A DNA stretch of 64,000 bases from sequence record MN642089.1; one strand, 5' to 3'. The notes under the pieces were generated by a model that worked only from the letters and a program-made list of their open reading frames with translations, had not been told where the DNA came from and searched no databases. The translations under genes and the position numbers were made by a program. Shown here piece by piece: positions 32,721 to 60,130 of the stretch (its first letter is position 1; each line of letters starts with the position of its first letter). The DNA comes from Klebsiella phage N1M2.

Positions 32721-33653
32721 ATGGCTAATGAAAGTGGGCGCGACTCCCAGAAACTTCCTAACCAGTTGGTAACTCCGAACGCGCTGGGTGTAATTATTAA
32801 CGCCGCTGTTTCTACAGGGCAAACCGTAGATATCCCTAAATGGACTACGATGAACGAACTTTACGACATTCTGGCTGATGAGTCTGTTGGTCGTAAGAAC
32901 GGTAAAGACTTTAAACTGGCTTACTACGGTATTGGTATTGGCGGTTCCCGTTCCATTGGTGTTGACTCTAATGGTCTGGAAGGTAGAAAAGTTTATCAAC
33001 ACAAAGCAACTGACTTCGGTGCTTTCTATCCTATTCCTTTTGTTATCCGTGAAATTGATGATGATATCGATCCAGTAATGCGTGATAACTACCGTATGCG
33101 TGTTGTTCGTAAAATCGGTGATAAGATCTACGTCATGTATTACCTGAAGTTGATTGGTTGGACTGAATTTGATCCAAGCATGAAAATTGGTGAGCGTGAT
33201 CCAGCAACTGGTAATGAAACCGAACGTCCGTACATTCCTGTTAAGGAAGACTTGACTCCTAAGCCTTATGAACTGTTGTCTACCAACAACATTCCAATTA
33301 CCAACACTTATGTGAACGGTACTGGTAAAATGGATCTGTCTCTGGACGGTAACGACCTGGAAGAAGTTCGTAACGTTTGTCGTGTTCTGTTCAACGATGC
33401 TGGTAAAGCAGCAATCAACGAAATGTATCTGGCTTACGGTATTGAATCTCGTAACACTGGTTCTATTGCCGGCGGCGGTACTGTTGAATATAAAGAACTA
33501 CAATCTGCTTGCGTTTCTTTCCAGATCACTGAAGCATATGCTCGTGATGCCAACTCCAACAGCAAAATGCCTTACTTCTTCTGGTACGGTAACTCCCTGC
33601 CGCTGCTGGTTGATCCATCTGCTGTTTCTCAGGGTGGTGCTGGTATCAAATAA
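32721..33653 (+). CDS. abundant virion protein, 310 aa (tail-tube-like size); function unknown
   Basis: Strong optimal-codon bias. RBS AAGGA upstream. Confidence 0.75.
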   Translation: MANESGRDSQKLPNQLVTPNALGVIINAAVSTGQTVDIPKWTTMNELYDILADESVGRKNGKDFKLAYYGIGIGGSRSIGVDSNGLEGRKVYQHKATDFGAFYPIPFVIREIDDDIDPVMRDNYRMRVVRKIGDKIYVMYYLKLIGWTEFDPSMKIGERDPATGNETERPYIPVKEDLTPKPYELLSTNNIPITNTYVNGTGKMDLSLDGNDLEEVRNVCRVLFNDAGKAAINEMYLAYGIESRNTGSIAGGGTVEYKELQSACVSFQITEAYARDANSNSKMPYFFWYGNSLPLLVDPSAVSQGGAGIK

Positions 33654-34294: not shown

Positions 34295-34888
34295 ATGACA
34301 GTACGCATACTAGGAATAGATCCAGGCATTACTAATCTTGGTGCGGCGGCATTGGAAGTAGACTGTTATGAAAGGAAACCGTTCAAACTTATTTATGCTG
34401 ACACATTACAGGGTGAGTATAATGAGTTTGGGGTAAGGCAGGATAACCCACAGCAAGTACGTGCACTTGGACTCACACGAGTCTATGGTCATGTGTTTGA
34501 GTTAATTGAACCTGCCGTAGTTTCTTGTGAGGATAACTTCTTAGGGATATCCCCTTCGAGTTTTAAACGCCTTATCGAAATAGTTTCTTTCATCCACCAG
34601 TACACTGTAACTAATCAGAAAGATGTTGCCTTTAGACAAGTTCTTCCTCGTCTAGCTAAAAAGATCGTTGATGCAGATTTCAGAGGGACAACTAAAGACG
34701 ATGTTACTAAAGGTCTATTGAAATGTCCTTTCTTAGATCTTAATGGTTTCGATCTGAATAAGTTAACTGAGCACGCTAATGACGCCATATTGTTAGGTCT
34801 TTATACTGCAGTTCAGTATTACCGAGATTTAGGCTGGGACGTGCTTGATGGAAAAGACATCGACAAAACAACCAAGTATCCAAAGTAA
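34295..34888 (+). CDS. RuvC-like Holliday-junction resolvase, 197 aa
   Basis: N-terminus MTVRILGIDPGITNLG matches the RuvC ILGIDPG motif holding the catalytic Asp (DNA 34307-34327). ANDAILLGL near the C-terminus matches the RuvC ADALAIA region. Confidence 0.55.
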   Translation: MTVRILGIDPGITNLGAAALEVDCYERKPFKLIYADTLQGEYNEFGVRQDNPQQVRALGLTRVYGHVFELIEPAVVSCEDNFLGISPSSFKRLIEIVSFIHQYTVTNQKDVAFRQVLPRLAKKIVDADFRGTTKDDVTKGLLKCPFLDLNGFDLNKLTEHANDAILLGLYTAVQYYRDLGWDVLDGKDIDKTTKYPK

Positions 34889-35498
34889 TGTTAATCATTG
34901 GGATAAATTCCCAATTGGTTTAAAAGCGATATCTGGGTTCAGCTCCTGTGTTACAGTTAACGCAGAAAGTGCTATTTTCATTCTATCCATTCACCTATCT
35001 GTTACTGCAGGTGTGGCGACATGGCCTGGAATTATTACAGCACTTATAATGATGGTCGGTCCGATTATCATTGCCTGGAACTTTGTTAACGCTAGAGCGA
35101 TCATAACAACTATTCTTACTCCTTCAGAAGAAGGTGGTAAGCCTGTGGAACAACAAGTTAAGGTACCACAAATACCTTCCATTGTTACTGCCACAGATTT
35201 TGCTATTGAACGTGAGTTAGTGGGACCTACCTCAGTTATCCTGAGAGCTATAGCTGGTGCCATTTCAACACATGTTATTTGTTTCTGCAGTTTGTTGTTT
35301 ACCTGGACGATACACGAGTCCATGATTGCAGGTAAACCACTACCAAGCAATACAGAATTGTTATTGGTTGTTATTGGACCTGTGGTGACGTCTTGGAACT
35401 TTGTTCGTGCAAGTGCCACTATTAATACTGTGATGCAAGGCGCTAATAAAATTGAGAAGTACCGTACTAAGCTGGCTAGTTGGATACAACCAAAATAA
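34848..35498 (+). CDS. 4-TM membrane protein with internal duplication, 216 aa; holin candidate
   Basis: Four hydrophobic helices. Two internal repeats (VGPIIIAWNFVNARAIITTIL and IGPVVTSWNFVRASATINTVM). Ends 53 nt from the spanin pair in convergent orientation. First ATG at 34848; the track start is TTG. Confidence 0.55.
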   Translation: MEKTSTKQPSIQSNVNHWDKFPIGLKAISGFSSCVTVNAESAIFILSIHLSVTAGVATWPGIITALIMMVGPIIIAWNFVNARAIITTILTPSEEGGKPVEQQVKVPQIPSIVTATDFAIERELVGPTSVILRAIAGAISTHVICFCSLLFTWTIHESMIAGKPLPSNTELLLVVIGPVVTSWNFVRASATINTVMQGANKIEKYRTKLASWIQPK

Positions 35499-35507
35499 AC
35501 AACATAC

Positions 35508-35545
35508 ACCCCTACCCCTCCAATTAAGGATGGGGTAGGGGTTAT
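35508..35545. terminator. bidirectional terminator
   Basis: cccctacccctcc-aattaa-ggatggggtagggg (13 bp plus bulge) followed by ttatgcttactattt. Near-identical to the copy at 51874-51910. Confidence 0.75.
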
Positions 35546-35550
35546 GCTTA

Positions 35551-36036
35551 CTATTTGACCAATTTAAGAGAGAGTTTAGTTTTCTCTGTAGACCCATCAT
35601 CGAAGTTGTCAATAATGGCATTGATATTTCCTATTAATCTATCAACAACTTCATTGAGTCCATTGATACGATCATTAGAAGCATCTAACTCCTTAGTGGT
35701 GCCGATCAGCAGGAGTCGAGTATGTAAGTAACACATTTCAAAATCAGGGGAACTAAGGCAATCATTGGTAGCTAGGAATTGATCCAAGTTTCCAATCATA
35801 GGTCCGATAGGTTTCCAATCTTTATTATAGATGTTACTAGGGATGTCAGTTAGTGCCGGCTTTAGAGCTACTAGCTGGCTTTTGTACAGGGTTAGTTTTT
35901 GAAGTTCCGTCTTCGCTTCCACGTACGTCTCCGCTTCCGATATTTTCGGACCGGCGCAACCGGAGATCGTAAAGATCAGAAAGAGTCCCGCTATCCCTTT
36001 TAGGATCATACCCATATTTCTCATAAAGGTTTTCAT
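35551..36036 (-). CDS. o-spanin (outer-membrane lipoprotein), 161 aa
   Basis: The ORF is out of frame with, and partly inside, the i-spanin gene. The internal ATG at 36036 follows GAAGG. Signal peptide MKTFMRNMGMILKGIAGLFLIFTISG|C has lipobox ISGC. The mature part holds 2 Cys and many Pro. Confidence 0.5.
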   Translation of the reverse strand: MKTFMRNMGMILKGIAGLFLIFTISGCAGPKISEAETYVEAKTELQKLTLYKSQLVALKPALTDIPSNIYNKDWKPIGPMIGNLDQFLATNDCLSSPDFEMCYLHTRLLLIGTTKELDASNDRINGLNEVVDRLIGNINAIIDNFDDGSTEKTKLSLKLVK

Positions 36037-36295
36037 AATCGCCTTCGCGTTTAAGATTATTAGCATAAGTAGACTTCTGTAAGTTTTCTGTCCACTCTCG
36101 TTGGGCATTGGCTGTCTTAGTCATATTCTCAGCAGTAACAGAGATACGGTCAACAGCAATAGTTAGTTTATCGATAGTATCTTTACTTACCGTACTATCT
36201 TGCTTAAAGATCAACCACCCACCAATGAATAAAACTAATATCCAAAGTGCAATGGTGTTCAAAGCAGCTAACTTATTTTTCAAAGCGTCATTCAT
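35846..36295 (-). CDS. i-spanin (type-II inner-membrane protein), 149 aa
   Basis: Short cytoplasmic N-terminus, one TM (IALWILVLFIGGWLIF), then a charged helical periplasmic domain. Its 3' half overlaps the lipoprotein ORF. ATGA-coupled to the upstream gene. Confidence 0.55.
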   Translation of the reverse strand: MNDALKNKLAALNTIALWILVLFIGGWLIFKQDSTVSKDTIDKLTIAVDRISVTAENMTKTANAQREWTENLQKSTYANNLKREGDYENLYEKYGYDPKRDSGTLSDLYDLRLRRSENIGSGDVRGSEDGTSKTNPVQKPASSSKAGTN

Positions 36296-37521
36296 CTTGT
36301 CTTTCCTAGATCAACAGCGTGAATCTTAAACATCCACCCTTTCATTAATGTTCCTGGATCACCTGGGTTAATGCTGTCGTTTGGAACAACGTTACCATCA
36401 AGAGTACCAGTAGTTAACATGGGGTATTTGTTATAGACACGCAAGTCGTGAGACCAGAGACGTTGACCAATACCATACGTCCTGATGTATGGAACTGGGA
36501 ACATCCCATTATCCACTACTAAAGGATGTTGGAACTTCTCTTCAGTGTGGAGCACAGTCGGGTAATGGAAGGTAGTCATAGGACTGACATCCACACCCAC
36601 ACTAGGGTTATCGATTAACACGATGAAACTATTATCAGCCAAGAGAGCTTGCTGCTTGTAAGTATCGAACTTAGTGAGGTTCGTTAACTTAGGTGTTCTG
36701 GTGTAGTGTTGATAGTTGAAGTAATGATGGATAACATCAAAAGCTGTGAGATCAATAGAGATACGATCATCAGCAACTTTATAAACAATATCTGTATCAA
36801 CCATCAGCTGTCCATTAACGACAACATAAATGGTTTTAGCATTCAAGTCATCTTTTACTTTTACTTCCCAACGTTTATTAGAAGTAGTCGAGACTTCTTG
36901 AAGAATATCCTTAGTAATCGGGATCGTTTTAACTTTACCGATTTTCTGGAAATTGAGAGCGCCAATGCGCAGGTCTTTACGATTCTTAATATAATCAAGA
37001 CCAGCGCCTAATAAATAGATTCCATCTTTACGTCCAACCGACCGAGTAAAGACACCATTAACTTGGAACAATGCATGATCATTAATATGATTGTAATCGA
37101 TATTTTGATACCTGTATTGTTCTATTCTGATATCAGGTGCACCATCAGAAGTGAGTAGGTCCTGTCTATCATTTGCGAGGTTTATGTTAGCCGGATAGTG
37201 GAAGTAACCATAGGTGAAAATACGTTCCAACTTAACATAACGGTACTTATCACCAGGCATAACGTCAGATAAAGTCAAGACATCATTTACTTTGGTATCT
37301 AACCATTTCTGAATAGTTAATGTTGGATTTTTGGCGAAGTCAAGTCGGTAATCTTGAAGAGTTATACAAACCTTATCTTTGAACATACTGTCATCAATGA
37401 CAATATAAAGAAGGTCAAACAACTTCTCAAGATCAGCGACGCTATAGTCAGCAATATCAACTATGTGATAGCCTGGTCTATAGTCTCTGTATCGCCCCAC
37501 TGAGTATTTGTATGTATACAT
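36292..37521 (-). CDS. hypothetical protein, 409 aa
   Basis: Clean ORF with RBS GAGG upstream. Its stop overlaps the i-spanin start (TCATGA). Confidence 0.7.
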   Translation of the reverse strand: MYTYKYSVGRYRDYRPGYHIVDIADYSVADLEKLFDLLYIVIDDSMFKDKVCITLQDYRLDFAKNPTLTIQKWLDTKVNDVLTLSDVMPGDKYRYVKLERIFTYGYFHYPANINLANDRQDLLTSDGAPDIRIEQYRYQNIDYNHINDHALFQVNGVFTRSVGRKDGIYLLGAGLDYIKNRKDLRIGALNFQKIGKVKTIPITKDILQEVSTTSNKRWEVKVKDDLNAKTIYVVVNGQLMVDTDIVYKVADDRISIDLTAFDVIHHYFNYQHYTRTPKLTNLTKFDTYKQQALLADNSFIVLIDNPSVGVDVSPMTTFHYPTVLHTEEKFQHPLVVDNGMFPVPYIRTYGIGQRLWSHDLRVYNKYPMLTTGTLDGNVVPNDSINPGDPGTLMKGWMFKIHAVDLGKTR

Positions 37522-56225: not shown

Positions 56226-57035
56226 ATGAACAGTAAGACCCAGACCAACCTAATGAGTATCTTTTTATTACTCATGTCACTTGTATGGATCTCCACTGTT
56301 TCGACTGCATATGCATCCGTCGGAGCTAATCCAAACGAGTACACTACCAAAATAGTGATGAAACGTTTTGATGGTTTGAAGGAGCATCTCTATGAAGCTT
56401 CTAAAGTAAGTGGGATGGATATGGCTGACTTAGTCGCTATATCGAGTATCGAATCCACCTTACGTACCAATACCCGTTCAAAGTTTTCAAGTGCATCCGG
56501 TGTAATGCAATACACCCGTTCAACTTGGAAACAAGATCGTAAGTTGTATGCTAAACAACTAGGTCTTTCAGAATCGGCTAATGTTTTAAATCCAAGAGCT
56601 AATCTCTTGATCGGTGCCACATCGCTAAACAACCTTAAGCAATTCCTCATAGAAAAATCACACTTGACCGACAAAACTGTCCGTGTAGGTGATCTTTATA
56701 TGAGCCATTTGGTTGGGGCCAACGGTGCACTAGCTGTTATTAACTCTAACAGCAACAAACCAATCAATAAGATCTTAAGAGTTACTAAAGGTAATTATTC
56801 CATGTACTACAAGCCGAATGGTCAGATTCGTACTGCCCGTGAATTCCGCTCTTATATGGATTACCTTGTAAAACGTGAACGCAGCTTCTATGAAAAAGAA
56901 GTAAGACGTTTCCAGATTGCCAAAGTAACTGCCCCTATTATTCGTCCGATCGAAGAAAACTTGTGGGGTAAGCAGTTAGCCATAGCTATCGCAAACACCA
57001 CTAAGTATGTCGGATATAACGATTTAAATAGTTAA
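56226..57035 (+). CDS. lytic transglycosylase (SLT domain) with N-terminal signal peptide or signal-anchor-release (SAR) segment, 269 aa; candidate endolysin
   Basis: N-terminus MNSKTQTNLMSIFLLLMSLVWISTVSTAYA|S has an AxA signal peptidase site. SLT catalytic-region pattern SIESTLRTNTRSKFSSASGVMQYT (E-S...GxMQ). Confidence 0.65.
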   Translation: MNSKTQTNLMSIFLLLMSLVWISTVSTAYASVGANPNEYTTKIVMKRFDGLKEHLYEASKVSGMDMADLVAISSIESTLRTNTRSKFSSASGVMQYTRSTWKQDRKLYAKQLGLSESANVLNPRANLLIGATSLNNLKQFLIEKSHLTDKTVRVGDLYMSHLVGANGALAVINSNSNKPINKILRVTKGNYSMYYKPNGQIRTAREFRSYMDYLVKRERSFYEKEVRRFQIAKVTAPIIRPIEENLWGKQLAIAIANTTKYVGYNDLNS

Positions 57036-57426: not shown

Positions 57427-58149
57427 ATGAACTTTGAAAGCAGTATCATCTTCACTGAAGGTCCGTTACAGGTAACTTTAAAAGGTCTGTATCCGACAAA
57501 AGGTAAGAAAAGGGAAAAACTAATTATCGATCATGTAGGACATCCTGTAATAGAGTGGTCGGTAGAAGGAGAAGGGTTGGAACCAATCAGTAGCCGCCAA
57601 ACTGTTATTCGTGCTTTAGGTGTCTGTGCTAATGACATGTTTAATGGATTCCCTGAATGTCATAAGGACTATAAACGTTCTTGGCATATGTTGATTCAGA
57701 AGTTAGGTAAACGTTCTTATGCTTCAACTCTACAGGCCGAACTTGATCGTTATCGTTCAGAAATGAAACCATCTTATCATTCCGAGCCGACATTCAAAGT
57801 GAGGGAAAGAGATGCTGTTATTACTCTGTTTAAACCTGATACGGGCGACGATGAATTTAAACTCAGCTTTAAGGTTAGCAAACCAAGTCACTACAGTGTG
57901 CACGGTAATATCGCGATCCGTTGCAATGGGGTTATTCGCCGTATTACTTACGCTCGTGATTTTGGGGTAGATAACATTCCTTACTTACTCAACCAAATTA
58001 AAGAGTGGTTGGATATCGCCGCTGAATCACATCGTTTAGATAAATCGCGTGTCAACATTATGTTGAACAACATAGAAGGTTATCTGAACAAGAAAGAACC
58101 AGCAATTAATTACTTGCTTAGCAATCTTAATGCTGGCAATAATCTATAG
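57427..58149 (+). CDS. hypothetical protein, 240 aa
   Basis: GGAG sits 6 nt before the ATG at 57427. The track start at 57415 is TTG. Confidence 0.6.
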   Translation: MNFESSIIFTEGPLQVTLKGLYPTKGKKREKLIIDHVGHPVIEWSVEGEGLEPISSRQTVIRALGVCANDMFNGFPECHKDYKRSWHMLIQKLGKRSYASTLQAELDRYRSEMKPSYHSEPTFKVRERDAVITLFKPDTGDDEFKLSFKVSKPSHYSVHGNIAIRCNGVIRRITYARDFGVDNIPYLLNQIKEWLDIAAESHRLDKSRVNIMLNNIEGYLNKKEPAINYLLSNLNAGNNL

Positions 58150-58156
58150 GTTAAAT

Positions 58157-60130
58157 ATGGATACTGAAAAATTACGTCGTATACTTGATTTGGAAGCTAA
58201 GATCAAATATCACGATTACATGTACTTCAATCAAGACATGCCAGTTATCTCTGATGCTGAGTATGATGATCTGGTTAGAGAATATAAAGAACTTCTTGAA
58301 CAGGTGCCTGATTATAAATCTCAACTGCGTGTTGGGTTTGTTGAAGTCGATTCTAAACTTTCTACTGTGGAAATCACTGAACCAATGATTTCTATTAGTA
58401 AGAAGAAAACCCCTAAGGACTTTAAAGTATGGATAGCAAGAAATGCTCATGCCAATGAAGTCTACGAAGATAAGCTCGATGGTGTTGCAATACGTCTTGT
58501 ATACACTAACGGCGTGCTTACTGCTGGTCATACCCGTGGTCGTGGAGATATAGGTGAAGATGTAACTCACCGCATGGGTCTGGTTGTTAATATCCCAACT
58601 GAAATTGAAGCTTATAAAGGTTTCGAGAAACGTACAGTTACTGGTGAATGTTTCTGTTTGTTCACAGACTTTGACGAGTATTTAAAACGTCACAGTTTAG
58701 ACCCTAAAGAAACCGACACCCGTTCCCTGGTCTCTGGCTTACTTCGCCGTCAAACACCTGGTGACCGTGAAGACCTACCTATTCAGTTCAAGGTATATAA
58801 CACAGACCTGGAAACTCGTAAAGGCTTTAAGACCTACGATGAACTAATGGGGCATCTTTGTTCTATTGGGTTCGATATCCCTAAACGGTTCACTGAACAA
58901 GAAGTTGAAGAAATGTTATCTTTAGCTTCTAAACCTGTTGGGGAATATCCTATCGACGGGATAGTGGTTAAGATTAACGATCTTCGTGAGTGGGAGAAAG
59001 AACAAACTGGCGAGTATTATACTTATGCCACTTGTTATAAGTTCCCCACATTAAGTTATGAAACTAAAGTCACTGGGATTGATTGGTCTTTAAGTAATGA
59101 AGGTCAATTGATCGGTACATTGATGTACGAATCAGTTGAGTATGATGGAACCAAACTTACACGTTGTAAGTTGGATTACGCAGGAAGTTATTTCGAGAAA
59201 GGGTTGCGAATGGGATCTATCATTCGTATCACCAAGGCTAATGAAATCATTCCTAACTTAGTAGGATTGGTTGACCCAGGTGATGGTGAACGTTTGCACT
59301 ATCCTGAGAACTGTCCTTTCTGTAACAAACCTGTTGAATATTATCAGCTATATGGAACAGCTTATTGTAAGAACGATAGTTGTGAAGGTCAGCTGATAAA
59401 ACAACTTACACGTTTAGTTTCTAAACAAGGTCTGAATATCAAAGGTCTTGGAGATGAACGTGTTCAATCGTTAGTAGATAACGGGTTCTTATCTCAACCT
59501 GCAGATCTGTTTAAACTAACAGAATCTGATTTCATTAACTCTGGTATTGGTAAAGGTGATGCGGAAAATATCCTCAATCAAATCAGTCGGGCTTCTGACC
59601 GGGATATTGTCCATTGGTTATTTGGTCTGGCTATCCCTGGACTTGGACTCGTACGTGCTGCGGATATTAGCAATCTGGCTGCGACCAACGGGTTAAATGA
59701 TGGCTTGCAGTTACACGATGCCAAGTCATTCGTAACGGTACTCAGTGACGCCAAATACATGTCCGACATGTTTGGTCTCGATGGGTTACCTATGGTAACC
59801 CATGTTAAGAAACATGCTGATGAAATATTGGACTTCTTAAGTCATTATGATTTTAACAGGCAGAGTGTTGTTAAAGAAGTTGGGATTCCAATTGCTATTA
59901 CTGGTGCTTGGGCTGCCCTACCTCGTAGCATGATGGAAGAAGGTTTGGCTAATGCTGGATATACAGTAACTGATTCTGTTACTAAGAGTTCTAAGTGTTT
60001 GTTGATTGGTGACAAACCAGGAGCTTCCAAACTAGAGAAAGCAAACCGGTACGGTATCCCTAAGTACAACATTACTCAGGTTCATACCATGAATGGCTTA
60101 ATCGCTTTAATTGAAAGTAAACCACAGTAA
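58157..60130 (+). CDS. ligA: NAD-dependent DNA ligase (LigA family), 657 aa
   Basis: N-terminal Ia domain signature HDYMYFNQDMPVISDAEYDDLVREYKELL (compare E. coli LigA [25 protein letters not shown]). Adenylation motif EDKLDG (58471-58488). Four-Cys zinc finger CPFCNKPV...C..C. C-terminal BRCT-like region. Confidence 0.85.
   Translation: MDTEKLRRILDLEAKIKYHDYMYFNQDMPVISDAEYDDLVREYKELLEQVPDYKSQLRVGFVEVDSKLSTVEITEPMISISKKKTPKDFKVWIARNAHANEVYEDKLDGVAIRLVYTNGVLTAGHTRGRGDIGEDVTHRMGLVVNIPTEIEAYKGFEKRTVTGECFCLFTDFDEYLKRHSLDPKETDTRSLVSGLLRRQTPGDREDLPIQFKVYNTDLETRKGFKTYDELMGHLCSIGFDIPKRFTEQEVEEMLSLASKPVGEYPIDGIVVKINDLREWEKEQTGEYYTYATCYKFPTLSYETKVTGIDWSLSNEGQLIGTLMYESVEYDGTKLTRCKLDYAGSYFEKGLRMGSIIRITKANEIIPNLVGLVDPGDGERLHYPENCPFCNKPVEYYQLYGTAYCKNDSCEGQLIKQLTRLVSKQGLNIKGLGDERVQSLVDNGFLSQPADLFKLTESDFINSGIGKGDAENILNQISRASDRDIVHWLFGLAIPGLGLVRAADISNLAATNGLNDGLQLHDAKSFVTVLSDAKYMSDMFGLDGLPMVTHVKKHADEILDFLSHYDFNRQSVVKEVGIPIAITGAWAALPRSMMEEGLANAGYTVTDSVTKSSKCLLIGDKPGASKLEKANRYGIPKYNITQVHTMNGLIALIESKPQ

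Follow-up and report, generated by a model that had tools for sequence, protein, structure and literature searches.

An overlapped pair of candidate spanin genes with a long, predicted helical lipoprotein in Klebsiella phage N1M2

Two overlapping minus-strand open reading frames of Klebsiella phage N1M2, an OBP-like, phiKZ-related jumbo phage, encode a candidate inner-membrane protein and a candidate outer-membrane lipoprotein that probably constitute the overlapped two-component spanin of this phage, orthologous to OBP_140 and OBP_139 of Pseudomonas phage OBP (probability about 0.78). An initial annotation of the window (the whole stretch of 64,000 nt that was analysed) had put forward this i-spanin/o-spanin reading, and it is supported by the topology signals in both proteins, the conserved overlap of their genes, selection in both frames and the listing of the OBP orthologues in SpaninDB. 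By analogy with the established spanin model, a spanin function is the most likely one for the pair. The pair itself is already known, having been catalogued in related phages, and is ordinary apart from its truncated public gene model.

A type II membrane protein and a lipoprotein in overlapping frames

The i-spanin candidate (35846..36295, minus strand, 149 aa) comprises an N-terminal transmembrane helix at about residues 10-30, a conserved periplasmic core and a variable tail. Signal-peptide and membrane-helix calls for both proteins follow hydropathy and motif rules, by which this protein has a single hydrophobic segment at about residues 7-33 (Kyte-Doolittle, 19-aa windows ≥1.6), kept in nine relatives, and is hydrophilic and highly charged over its other 119 residues, in agreement with the type II topology first proposed for it. 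The conserved core reaches an LYEKYGYDP motif at around residue 99, and 86% of the variable tail (residues 114-149) is made up of P/G/S/T/N/Q/D/E/K/R. The protein contains zero cysteines and matches phrog_21243 with E=1.1e-35.

The o-spanin candidate (35551..36036, minus strand, 161 aa) is read in the +1 frame relative to the i-spanin gene and begins with a predicted 26-aa lipoprotein signal peptide, MKTFMRNMGMILKGIAGLFLIFTISG|CA, ending in the lipobox I-S-G-C (35956..35967, minus strand; read from the sequence), in which the Cys27 codon at 35956-35958 specifies the predicted lipid-attachment site. Out-of-frame lipoprotein, signal peptide and lipobox had all been recognised correctly at the outset, as had a mature part of about 134 aa (135 aa counting the Cys). 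Residue +2 is Ala and not Asp, which fits sorting to the outer membrane, and by motif rules the protein is classed as a lipoprotein. Its only hydrophobic stretch by hydropathy covers residues 7-29, its proline content is 4.4%, and it matches phrog_17307 with E=5e-44. A unimolecular spanin of the T1 gp11 type was rejected, as the lipoprotein has no C-terminal hydrophobic segment. From stop to stop the frame is open over 35551..36120, the ATG at 36036 giving the 161-aa form; a longer form of 185 aa, starting from the ATG at 36108, was rejected because its upstream extension is interrupted by stop codons in the relatives SXP01, L006 and L008, and the start at gene nucleotide 260 is the sole one common to all genomes compared.

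The two genes share 191 nt (35846..36036, minus strand), which hold i-spanin codons 87-149 with the stop as well as o-spanin codons 1-63 and part of codon 64, and the DNA encoding the variable tail of the i-spanin also specifies the N-terminal part of the mature o-spanin. The lipoprotein frame extends 295 nt beyond the i-spanin stop, a figure that the initial annotation had exactly; its description of the architecture as embedded or overlapped stands only in the second term.

The mature o-spanin carries two cysteines in a C-X8-C arrangement (35731..35760, minus strand), Cys93 (35758-35760) and Cys102 (35731-35733), neither of which varies among the 44 aligned family members, and the i-spanin offers no periplasmic Cys. 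An AlphaFold2 model computed from this 44-sequence alignment has a mean pLDDT of 81 (a 10-sequence alignment gave 53 and was unusable) and shows three predicted helices at residues 31-63, 81-90 and 99-146, two of them long, with C93 and C102 placed between the second and the third. Foldseek comparison of the model with the PDB gave no match below E=3.7, and a profile search of PDB sequences none lower than E=0.19; the matches in BFVD are family members only, namely the N1M2 stub discussed below and the lipoproteins of Aeromonas phage LAh10 and Erwinia phage RisingSun.

On its 5' side the i-spanin gene is coupled by an ATGA junction (36292..36295, minus strand), in which its ATG shares nucleotides with the TGA that ends the upstream gene of 409 aa (36292..37521, minus strand); an identical 4-nt overlap is seen in L006, L008, L010 and L012. 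While this coupling bears out the initial annotation, the "unknown function" given there for the 409-aa gene can be amended: the gene is the orthologue of OBP_141 (phrog_3337, E=3.7e-99), and its orthologues in OBP, Yubaba and Sureiya are annotated as "putative virion structural protein". Co-transcription of this gene with the two spanin genes is probable. Past the o-spanin stop and before the convergent gene, a hairpin rich in G+C, CCCCTACCCC...GGGGTAGGGG, precedes a U-rich stretch (35501..35548, no strand assigned). This element has an RNA folding energy of -34.5 kcal/mol (z = -6.05 relative to 200 shuffled sequences) and looks like a terminator, although a consensus terminator scan returned nothing, this hairpin included. 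A scan for sigma-70 promoters gave matches at the level of shuffled sequence only.

Conservation of the arrangement and selection on both frames

The arrangement is conserved across the OBP/EL-like jumbo phage family, and both components are homologous along their full length to those of the OBP/EL type (phrog_21243 and phrog_17307). Nine related genomes, spanning down to ~53% amino-acid identity, all keep the o-spanin ORF, its start at gene nucleotide 260, the lipobox Cys and the +1 overlap; their mature o-spanins are 127-138 aa long and have two periplasmic Cys, and their i-spanins have none in the periplasm. The i-spanin of L006 has one Cys, located in the membrane helix. The overlap is further found in three more distant contigs, where an uncalled type II membrane ORF overlaps the lipoprotein gene by 296, 269 and 140 nt and is flanked on its other side by a gene of 412 aa (406 aa in L016). 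Residues 6-99 of the i-spanin align with these uncalled ORFs at an hhalign probability of 96%, the tail being unalignable. For the lipoprotein, a profile search of 1.84 billion representatives collected 58 clusters; the lipobox Cys is present in 27 of the 28 N-terminally complete members, and Asp never occurs at position +2.

OBP_140 and OBP_139 are direct orthologues of the N1M2 pair, with 51% (i-spanin) and 54% (o-spanin) identity, and share with it the order of genes following the structural gene of 409 aa, the +1 overlap (182 nt, and 191 nt in N1M2), the lipobox position, the length of the mature o-spanin (132 vs 135 aa) and the two Cys. They differ in the lipobox (LVAC vs ISGC) and in the host, Pseudomonas instead of Klebsiella. 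The 2018 SpaninDB lists the OBP genes as an overlapped two-component spanin with the flags "Too long?" and "doubtful" and a combined periplasmic length of 249 aa, and credits the i-spanin with 37% predicted helix and, unlike typical i-spanins, no coiled coil, and the o-spanin with two predicted coiled-coil segments (Kongari et al. 2018, PMC6139136). The pair of Pseudomonas phage EL is also listed there as an overlapped spanin, and at the 40% identity threshold of that database EL and OBP are separate singleton families (PMC6139136). By profile comparison, the EL and OBP o-spanins belong to one family: the EL o-spanin, with a 127-aa mature domain, is homologous to that of N1M2 (31% identity, E=2e-25, hhalign 99.2%) and has the Cys pair and a CY..TR..LI..T..LD motif in common with it.

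Long alternative-frame ORFs do occur, which as a general caution would be the one reason to regard the lipoprotein ORF as a chance reading frame and no gene. We consider the probability of this to be practically nil, and the conservation data refute it: the frame is open with its lipobox in 9/9 relatives, has 58 homologous clusters and yields a confident structure model, and in the 295 nt past the i-spanin stop, where only the o-spanin is encoded, divergence peaks at its third codon positions (0.58; Kruskal p=3e-13). Moreover, a crude filter for lipoprotein signals, applied to all six frames of the 64-kb window, retained 3 ORFs, compared with 0.4 on average in 30 shuffled sequences, with the o-spanin ORF as the sole long candidate; because of this excess over shuffles and the ninefold conservation of ORF, start and lipobox Cys, it lies beyond chance.

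Both frames are under purifying selection. Where only the i-spanin is encoded, divergence peaks at its own third codon positions (0.54; Kruskal p=2e-14). Within the overlap, no frame is significantly dominant over the signal-peptide part of the o-spanin (Kruskal p=0.2), and over the mature o-spanin the o-frame dominates, with divergence of 0.46 at its third and 0.17 at its second codon positions (p about 2e-5 to 4e-5). The o-spanin dominates selection across most of the shared DNA, and mean identity in the overlap with its mature part is 0.48 for the i-spanin vs 0.75 for the o-spanin. Together with a tail that cannot be aligned in distant relatives, this poor conservation would suit a reading in which only the lipoprotein matters functionally, the membrane protein encoded upstream has nothing to do with it, and the overlap is no more than a product of dense gene packing in a compact phage genome. 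We regard this as very improbable, given the clear purifying selection in the i-only region and the conservation of the i-spanin core (residues 1-99), which directly precedes and overlaps the lipoprotein gene in all 12 loci examined, by 140-296 nt and thus far more than the 1-4 nt of ordinary packing overlaps.

Relation to characterised spanins and proposed mechanism

An experimental precedent in a related nucleus-forming jumbo phage is the pair gp141/gp141.1 of phiKZ, likewise overlapped, which complements lambda Rz-am Rz1-am (Manohar et al. 2026, PMC12894885). The phiKZ pair directly follows gp139 and gp140, homologues of which are encoded in the window at 32721-33653 (E=8e-21) and 34295-34888 (E=4e-14), and DUF7208 and RuvC-like genes adjoin the pair in both phages. 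Yet no homology of the N1M2 proteins to gp141 or gp141.1 is detectable (hhalign probability 9% and 1%), and the phiKZ o-spanin is shorter, with a 100-aa periplasmic domain. The surroundings differ as well: the phiKZ pair stands first in an uninterrupted cassette with holin, regulator and endolysin genes, whereas that of N1M2 is inverted and follows a structural gene. By tblastn, the window contains no homologues of the phiKZ holin gp142 and regulator gp143; a weak gp142 match within a 962-aa gene was rejected as spurious, as was a neighbouring multi-pass membrane protein as a phiKZ-type holin, there being no similarity. Neither an endolysin nor a recognisable holin was found adjoining the pair, and a candidate endolysin with an SLT domain lies ~20 kb away.

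In these respects N1M2 resembles T4, where the spanin genes PseT.3/PseT.2 are also unlinked from holin and endolysin and the o-spanin also has a predicted helix. T4 also shares the distribution of cysteines, none in the i-spanin and two in the o-spanin, with C-X10-C in place of C-X8-C, but its genes are separated rather than overlapped and its o-spanin has a periplasmic domain of 83 aa; the T4 spanins were absent from the homologues found for the N1M2 pair. Both Cys of PseT.2 are essential, the 0/2 pattern is the commonest in SpaninDB, and at least one periplasmic Cys is available for homotypic disulfide links in 507 of 528 spanin systems (PMC6139136). By analogy with PseT.2, C93 and C102 probably form such links.

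Lambda Rz/Rz1 belong to the same topology classes, and there, too, the o-spanin gene is out of frame within the i-spanin gene. Rz1, however, is fully embedded, proline-rich and unstructured, with 40-41 aa in its mature form, whereas the N1M2 o-spanin has 135 aa, little proline and a mostly helical predicted structure and is longer than its own i-spanin. Neither N1M2 protein matches the Rz or Rz1 families, which we take to be PF03245 and PF06085, even at E≤1 in Pfam or NCBIfam, scans of which gave only sub-threshold noise for both. Among the SpaninDB entries compared, embedded o-spanins measure 32-76 aa (PMC6139136), and only Kappa (167 aa), Ea35-70 (148) and CR5 (134) have o-spanin periplasmic domains exceeding the 132 aa of OBP, which agrees with the unusual length noted initially. 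The family is a conserved outlier among spanins, with an o-spanin longer than the i-spanin and predicted to be mostly helical.

These peculiarities would also fit a genuine module of two envelope-anchored proteins that serves a purpose other than disrupting the outer membrane, for instance a single-helix holin (T4 T-like, class III) or lysis-timing sensor with a periplasmic lipoprotein regulator, or a lipoprotein for superinfection exclusion or receptor masking that has a partner in the membrane. Besides the helical, structured o-spanin (pLDDT 81), which is not short and proline-rich, the doubts of the SpaninDB curators, who judged the OBP pair too long, and the location among virion structural genes with no recognisable holin nearby point in this direction. 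Nevertheless, we consider such a module unlikely: an outer-membrane lipoprotein gene that starts out of frame within the gene for a type II inner-membrane protein is the signature of two-component spanins, the 0/2 Cys pattern is typical of them, and the pair occupies a position equivalent to the one held by the validated spanins of phiKZ. We know of no non-spanin system described with such a gene pair, and the known exclusion lipoproteins, such as T5 Llp and Cor, are small, early and unpaired. Furthermore, phages that infect Gram-negative hosts normally depend on a spanin, and the window offers no other candidate; for competing candidates genome-wide, we relied on the whole-genome curation of OBP in SpaninDB.

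For the spanin reading, a mechanism can be modelled on lambda Rz/Rz1, T4 PseT.3/PseT.2 and phiKZ gp141/gp141.1. The i-spanin would be anchored in the inner membrane and extend its C-terminal domain into the periplasm; the o-spanin would receive its lipid and be delivered to the outer membrane, in whose inner leaflet it would sit. Reaching through the meshwork of the peptidoglycan, the two would bind across the periplasm. Upon removal of the peptidoglycan by the endolysin, the spanin complexes would draw the two membranes together and fuse them, so that the outer membrane, the final obstacle to the release of virions, is eliminated. The long helices would be supplied by the o-spanin, the i-spanin contributing a conserved core of lesser length (residues 1-99) together with a tail that varies and is probably disordered. 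More tentatively, and with less than even confidence, OBP/EL-type pairs might represent a structurally "inverted" class of two-component spanins, in which a lipoprotein with long helices and an essential Cys pair supplies the membrane-apposing machinery and the inner-membrane partner only a short core and a disordered tail, the latter derived by overprinting as the i-spanin frame extended into the o-spanin gene. If true, this division of labour would be opposite to that in lambda, with the coiled coil in Rz and a short, proline-rich, overprinted Rz1. We found no report of complementation or knockout of OBP/EL-type members in the literature; the outcome of lambda complementation would either extend the structural range of spanins or show that their genetic signature can mislead, and neither would overturn the current picture of phage lysis.

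Public gene models

The significance of the pair lies chiefly in annotation, where o-spanin models are truncated and i-spanins mislabelled or uncalled. In the GenBank record of N1M2 both CDSs are named "lambda Rz1-like protein". Given the missing match to the Rz/Rz1 families and the differing architecture and size, "lambda Rz1-like" is to be read as a functional analogy; for the i-spanin, which carries the label in N1M2, OBP and SXP01, it is wrong. Several metagenomic relatives have no i-spanin call whatever. The N1M2 i-spanin is 100% identical to QGH71976.1, but the deposited o-spanin CDS (35551..35799, minus strand) is a 5'-truncated stub of 82 aa from Met80, without signal peptide and lipobox, whereas the OBP record has the full-length CDS. 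Truncated o-spanins without the lipoprotein signal also stand in the records of Yubaba, Sureiya and SXP01. Neither the 161-aa nor the 185-aa form has an exact match in the protein collection searched; the 82-aa stub was retrieved there by exact look-up as QGH71975.1 ("lambda Rz1-like protein", N1M2), in a cluster that includes the 82-aa "hypothetical protein" of Yubaba (UQT03237.1) and Sureiya (UQT02802.1).

Architecture and annotation of the gene pair

The candidate i-spanin is a 149-aa ORF at 35846..36295 on the minus strand, and the candidate o-spanin lies in its +1 frame, open from 36120 to a stop at 35551 (minus strand), both being evident in the ORF listing and on direct reading. Translation from the ATG at 36036 yields a 161-aa lipoprotein with the N-terminus MKTFMRNMGMILKGIAGLFLIFTISG|CAGPK..., in which a basic n-region is followed by a hydrophobic core and the lipobox ISGC; with Cys27 encoded at 35956-35958 (minus strand), the mature o-spanin measures 135 aa, in good agreement with the ~134 aa initially estimated. 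By hydropathy, each protein has one hydrophobic segment at its N-terminus and lacks one at its C-terminus, so that the type-II membrane protein and the lipoprotein signal of the initial annotation both hold. The genes overlap by 191 nt (35846-36036), and 295 nt of the lipoprotein gene lie beyond the i-spanin stop codon, as first described; the arrangement is thus overlapped, whereas "embedded", the other term originally applied, is wrong in spanin nomenclature. The ATGA coupling to the upstream 409-aa gene is also present (36292-36295, where the TGA of that gene overlaps the i-spanin ATG), but the gene itself, at first listed as of unknown function, is an orthologue of OBP_141 of Pseudomonas phage OBP, a putative virion structural protein.

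When the six frames of the window were passed through a crude filter for lipoprotein signals, three ORFs were retained against a mean of 0.4 in shuffled sequences; the two besides the o-spanin are short antisense artefacts. A 73-aa antisense ORF at 36108-36329 (plus strand) passes only because it mirrors the i-spanin transmembrane segment, and is almost certainly spurious.

The pair is already known. The i-spanin sequence matches QGH71976.1 of Klebsiella phage N1M2 at 100% identity, so that the window represents N1M2 or an almost identical isolate. Both CDSs are labelled 'lambda Rz1-like protein' in that record, the i-spanin is labelled 'Rz1-like' in the N1M2, OBP and Shewanella phage SXP01 records, and SpaninDB has curated entries for the orthologues; lysis genes are not discussed in the N1M2 genome paper. 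By megablast, the region is 86% identical to the Serratia phages Yubaba and Sureiya and about 72-74% identical to SXP01 and OBP. Of these, Yubaba, Sureiya and OBP belong to the genus Petsuvirus (OBP-like, phiKZ-related jumbo phages), and the SXP01 record carries no such classification. The deposited N1M2 o-spanin (QGH71975.1, 35551..35799, minus strand) covers only the last 82 codons. Equivalent 82-aa stubs, annotated as hypothetical, are deposited for Yubaba (UQT03237.1; locus L002, 4550-4798) and Sureiya (UQT02802.1; locus L004, 4550-4798), and an 89-aa stub for SXP01 (locus L001, 4405-4674). All four of these 5'-truncated models (82-89 aa) lack the signal peptide and lipobox; among these records, only OBP has a full-length model (OBP_139, 157 aa, with a 182-nt overlap with OBP_140). 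Neither the 161-aa nor the 185-aa form of the o-spanin was found in a collection of 15 billion proteins. Our analysis thus provides a corrected o-spanin gene model for N1M2, Yubaba, Sureiya and SXP01.

Selection in two frames

In an alignment of the locus across nine genomes (the window, Yubaba, Sureiya, SXP01, OBP and four metagenomic contigs), the overlapped lipoprotein frame, always +1 relative to the i-spanin, is kept in every one. Its start codon falls at gene nt 260 throughout (ATG in eight genomes, TTG in one), the lipobox Cys follows 25-26 codons 3' of it, and the mature protein has 127-138 aa with two further Cys. The i-spanin periplasmic domain is free of Cys in every genome, the single Cys in one metagenomic contig (L006) lying within the membrane helix.

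Mean pairwise divergence per codon position changes along the alignment. In the i-spanin-only region (gene nt 1-259), the third i-spanin position is the most variable (0.54, the others 0.33 and 0.20; Kruskal p=2e-14), and in the o-spanin-only region (nt 451-742) it is the third o-spanin position (0.58, the others 0.32 and 0.24; Kruskal p=3e-13). Over the o-spanin signal peptide (nt 260-340) no position dominates (0.34, 0.27, 0.42; Kruskal p=0.2), and over the mature o-spanin (nt 341-447) the third o-spanin position diverges at 0.46 as against 0.17 for the second, which is the third of the i-spanin (p=4e-5). Protein identities agree, with a mean of 0.75 for o-spanin residues 27-63 and 0.48 for the i-spanin tail read from the same DNA; both genes are therefore under selection. 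Where the overlap encodes mature o-spanin, the sequence is set by the o-spanin frame, and the tail of the i-spanin, 86% of which is P, G, S, T, N, Q, D, E, K or R, is a passenger, which provides a codon-phase account of how two frames share an overlap.

A family of long, mostly helical candidate o-spanins

A word-indexed search returned 9 o-spanin clusters, mostly 5'-truncated calls, and 16 i-spanin clusters, while the o-spanin profile, searched exhaustively by HMM against 1.84 billion representatives, gave 58 clusters at E<=1e-3, 27 of them at E<=1e-10. Of the members called as far as the N-terminus, 27 of 28 carry a Cys at the lipobox position of the alignment; the mature proteins span 122-151 aa (median 129), and Asp never occupies position +2. 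The pair C93 and C102 shows no variation across the 44 aligned family sequences. In three more distant metagenomic contigs (L013, L014 and L016) the lipoprotein is called in full and a gap is left after a 412-aa gene (406 aa in L016). This apparent gap of about 230-270 nt reflects an uncalled type-II membrane ORF: 190 aa at 3724-4296 in L013 (296-nt overlap with the lipoprotein gene), 178 aa at 3733-4269 in L014 (269 nt) and 124 aa at 2876-3250 in L016 (140 nt). The two compared, from L013 and L016, are homologous to i-spanin residues about 6-99 (hhalign probability 96%, E about 1e-9), and their tails do not align with the window i-spanin tail.

The SpaninDB o-spanin of phage EL is clearly homologous (31% identity, E=2e-25; hhalign 99.2%), and structure matches in BFVD bring in 'lipoprotein' entries of Aeromonas phage LAh10 and Erwinia phage RisingSun. 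The SpaninDB singletons OBP and EL, listed as separate families, are therefore one by profile: a single family of long, mostly helical o-spanins, spread across the OBP/EL-like branch of jumbo phages, to which the LAh10 and RisingSun lipoproteins also belong. An AlphaFold2 model from 44 sequences (mean pLDDT 81; 79-95 over residues 31-140) predicts three helices (31-63, 81-90 and 99-146), the Cys pair falling between the last two; a model from 10 sequences was unreliable. Foldseek found no PDB analogue of the model (best E=3.7), nor did a sequence-profile search of the PDB return anything. Proline makes up 4.4% of the mature N1M2 protein, in contrast to 10 Pro in 40 residues of lambda Rz1 in the SpaninDB article (Kongari et al. 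2018, PMC6139136).

In the SpaninDB entries consulted, OBP_140/OBP_139 is classed as a two-component spanin of the overlapped type, each component forming a singleton family: the i-spanin has 146 aa (periplasmic domain 117 aa, no Cys) and the o-spanin 157 aa (mature domain 132 aa, two Cys), the coiled-coil table predicting two segments in the o-spanin and none in the i-spanin (PMC6139136). The unusual o-spanin length that had been noted for N1M2 is borne out, and was already remarked upon there: among the o-spanin rows compared, only Kappa (167 aa), Ea35-70 (148 aa) and CR5 (134 aa) exceed the 132 aa of OBP, with EL at 127 aa, T4 at 83 aa and the embedded type at 32-76 aa, and the i-spanin is listed as the longer partner in 489 of 528 systems (PMC6139136).

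Proposed function and genomic neighbourhood

The original observation is confirmed and its interpretation supported; we consider a two-component spanin the best-supported explanation, with a probability of a little under four in five. Following the lambda, T4 and phiKZ paradigm, the type-II protein would accumulate in the inner membrane, the lipoprotein would be lipidated at Cys27 and then sorted to the outer membrane, and the two would connect across the periplasm; once the endolysin has cleared the peptidoglycan, the complexes would draw the inner and outer membranes into fusion. Most of the remaining probability falls to a real protein pair with a different envelope function; in the entries consulted, the SpaninDB curators express doubt about the OBP assignment (PMC6139136). 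Within the proposed spanin, the distinctive features, predicted long helices and a conserved Cys pair, both reside in the o-spanin, and the distal third of the i-spanin, a tail that varies and is probably disordered, is encoded within the DNA of the o-spanin; this may reflect an inverted division of labour between the two.

A 2026 study showed that the overlapped spanin genes of phiKZ, gp141/gp141.1, complement lambda Rz-am Rz1-am (PMC12894885). In phiKZ, gp139 and gp140 directly precede this pair (locus L005, 5010-6472); their homologues lie on the plus strand of the window, at 32721-33653 (DUF7208, E=8e-21) and 34295-34888 (RuvC-like, E=4e-14), and the N1M2 pair follows about 0.7 kb past the RuvC-like gene in inverted orientation, the whole block of spanin and 409-aa genes being inverted relative to phiKZ. 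The two pairs are thus positionally equivalent, although profile comparison detects no sequence homology between them.

No endolysin or recognisable holin adjoins the pair; in T4, likewise, the spanin genes are unlinked from holin and endolysin. Directly 3' lies a strong G+C-rich hairpin (35501-35548, -34.5 kcal/mol, z=-6) with a U-rich stretch after it, probably a bidirectional terminator between two convergent genes, which a consensus terminator scan does not list. Past it, a convergent gene (34845-35498, plus strand; orthologues OBP_138 and YUBABA_00300) encodes a 217-aa multi-pass membrane protein with an internal duplication (residues 26-103 and 133-205, BLASTP E=4e-11), both copies of which close with the motif GP(I/V)(I/V)..WNFV.A.A. 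Its PHROG matches are of unknown function, Pfam yields no hit, and comparison with the phiKZ holin gp142 shows no similarity; given its place beside the spanins, the protein is worth considering as a candidate holin or another membrane factor in lysis. About 20 kb away from the pair, a 269-aa protein with an SLT lytic transglycosylase domain (56226-57035, plus strand; Pfam PF01464, E=1.8e-6) begins with a hydrophobic signal or anchor, MNSKTQTNLMSIFLLLMSLVWISTVSTAYA..., matches the phiKZ endolysin gp144 (tblastn, E=1.2e-11) and carries an endolysin or transglycosylase annotation in relatives; it may be an endolysin of the secreted or signal-anchor-release type. Beyond it, a 666-aa ORF (58130-60130, plus strand) resembles, by eye only, an NAD-dependent DNA ligase.
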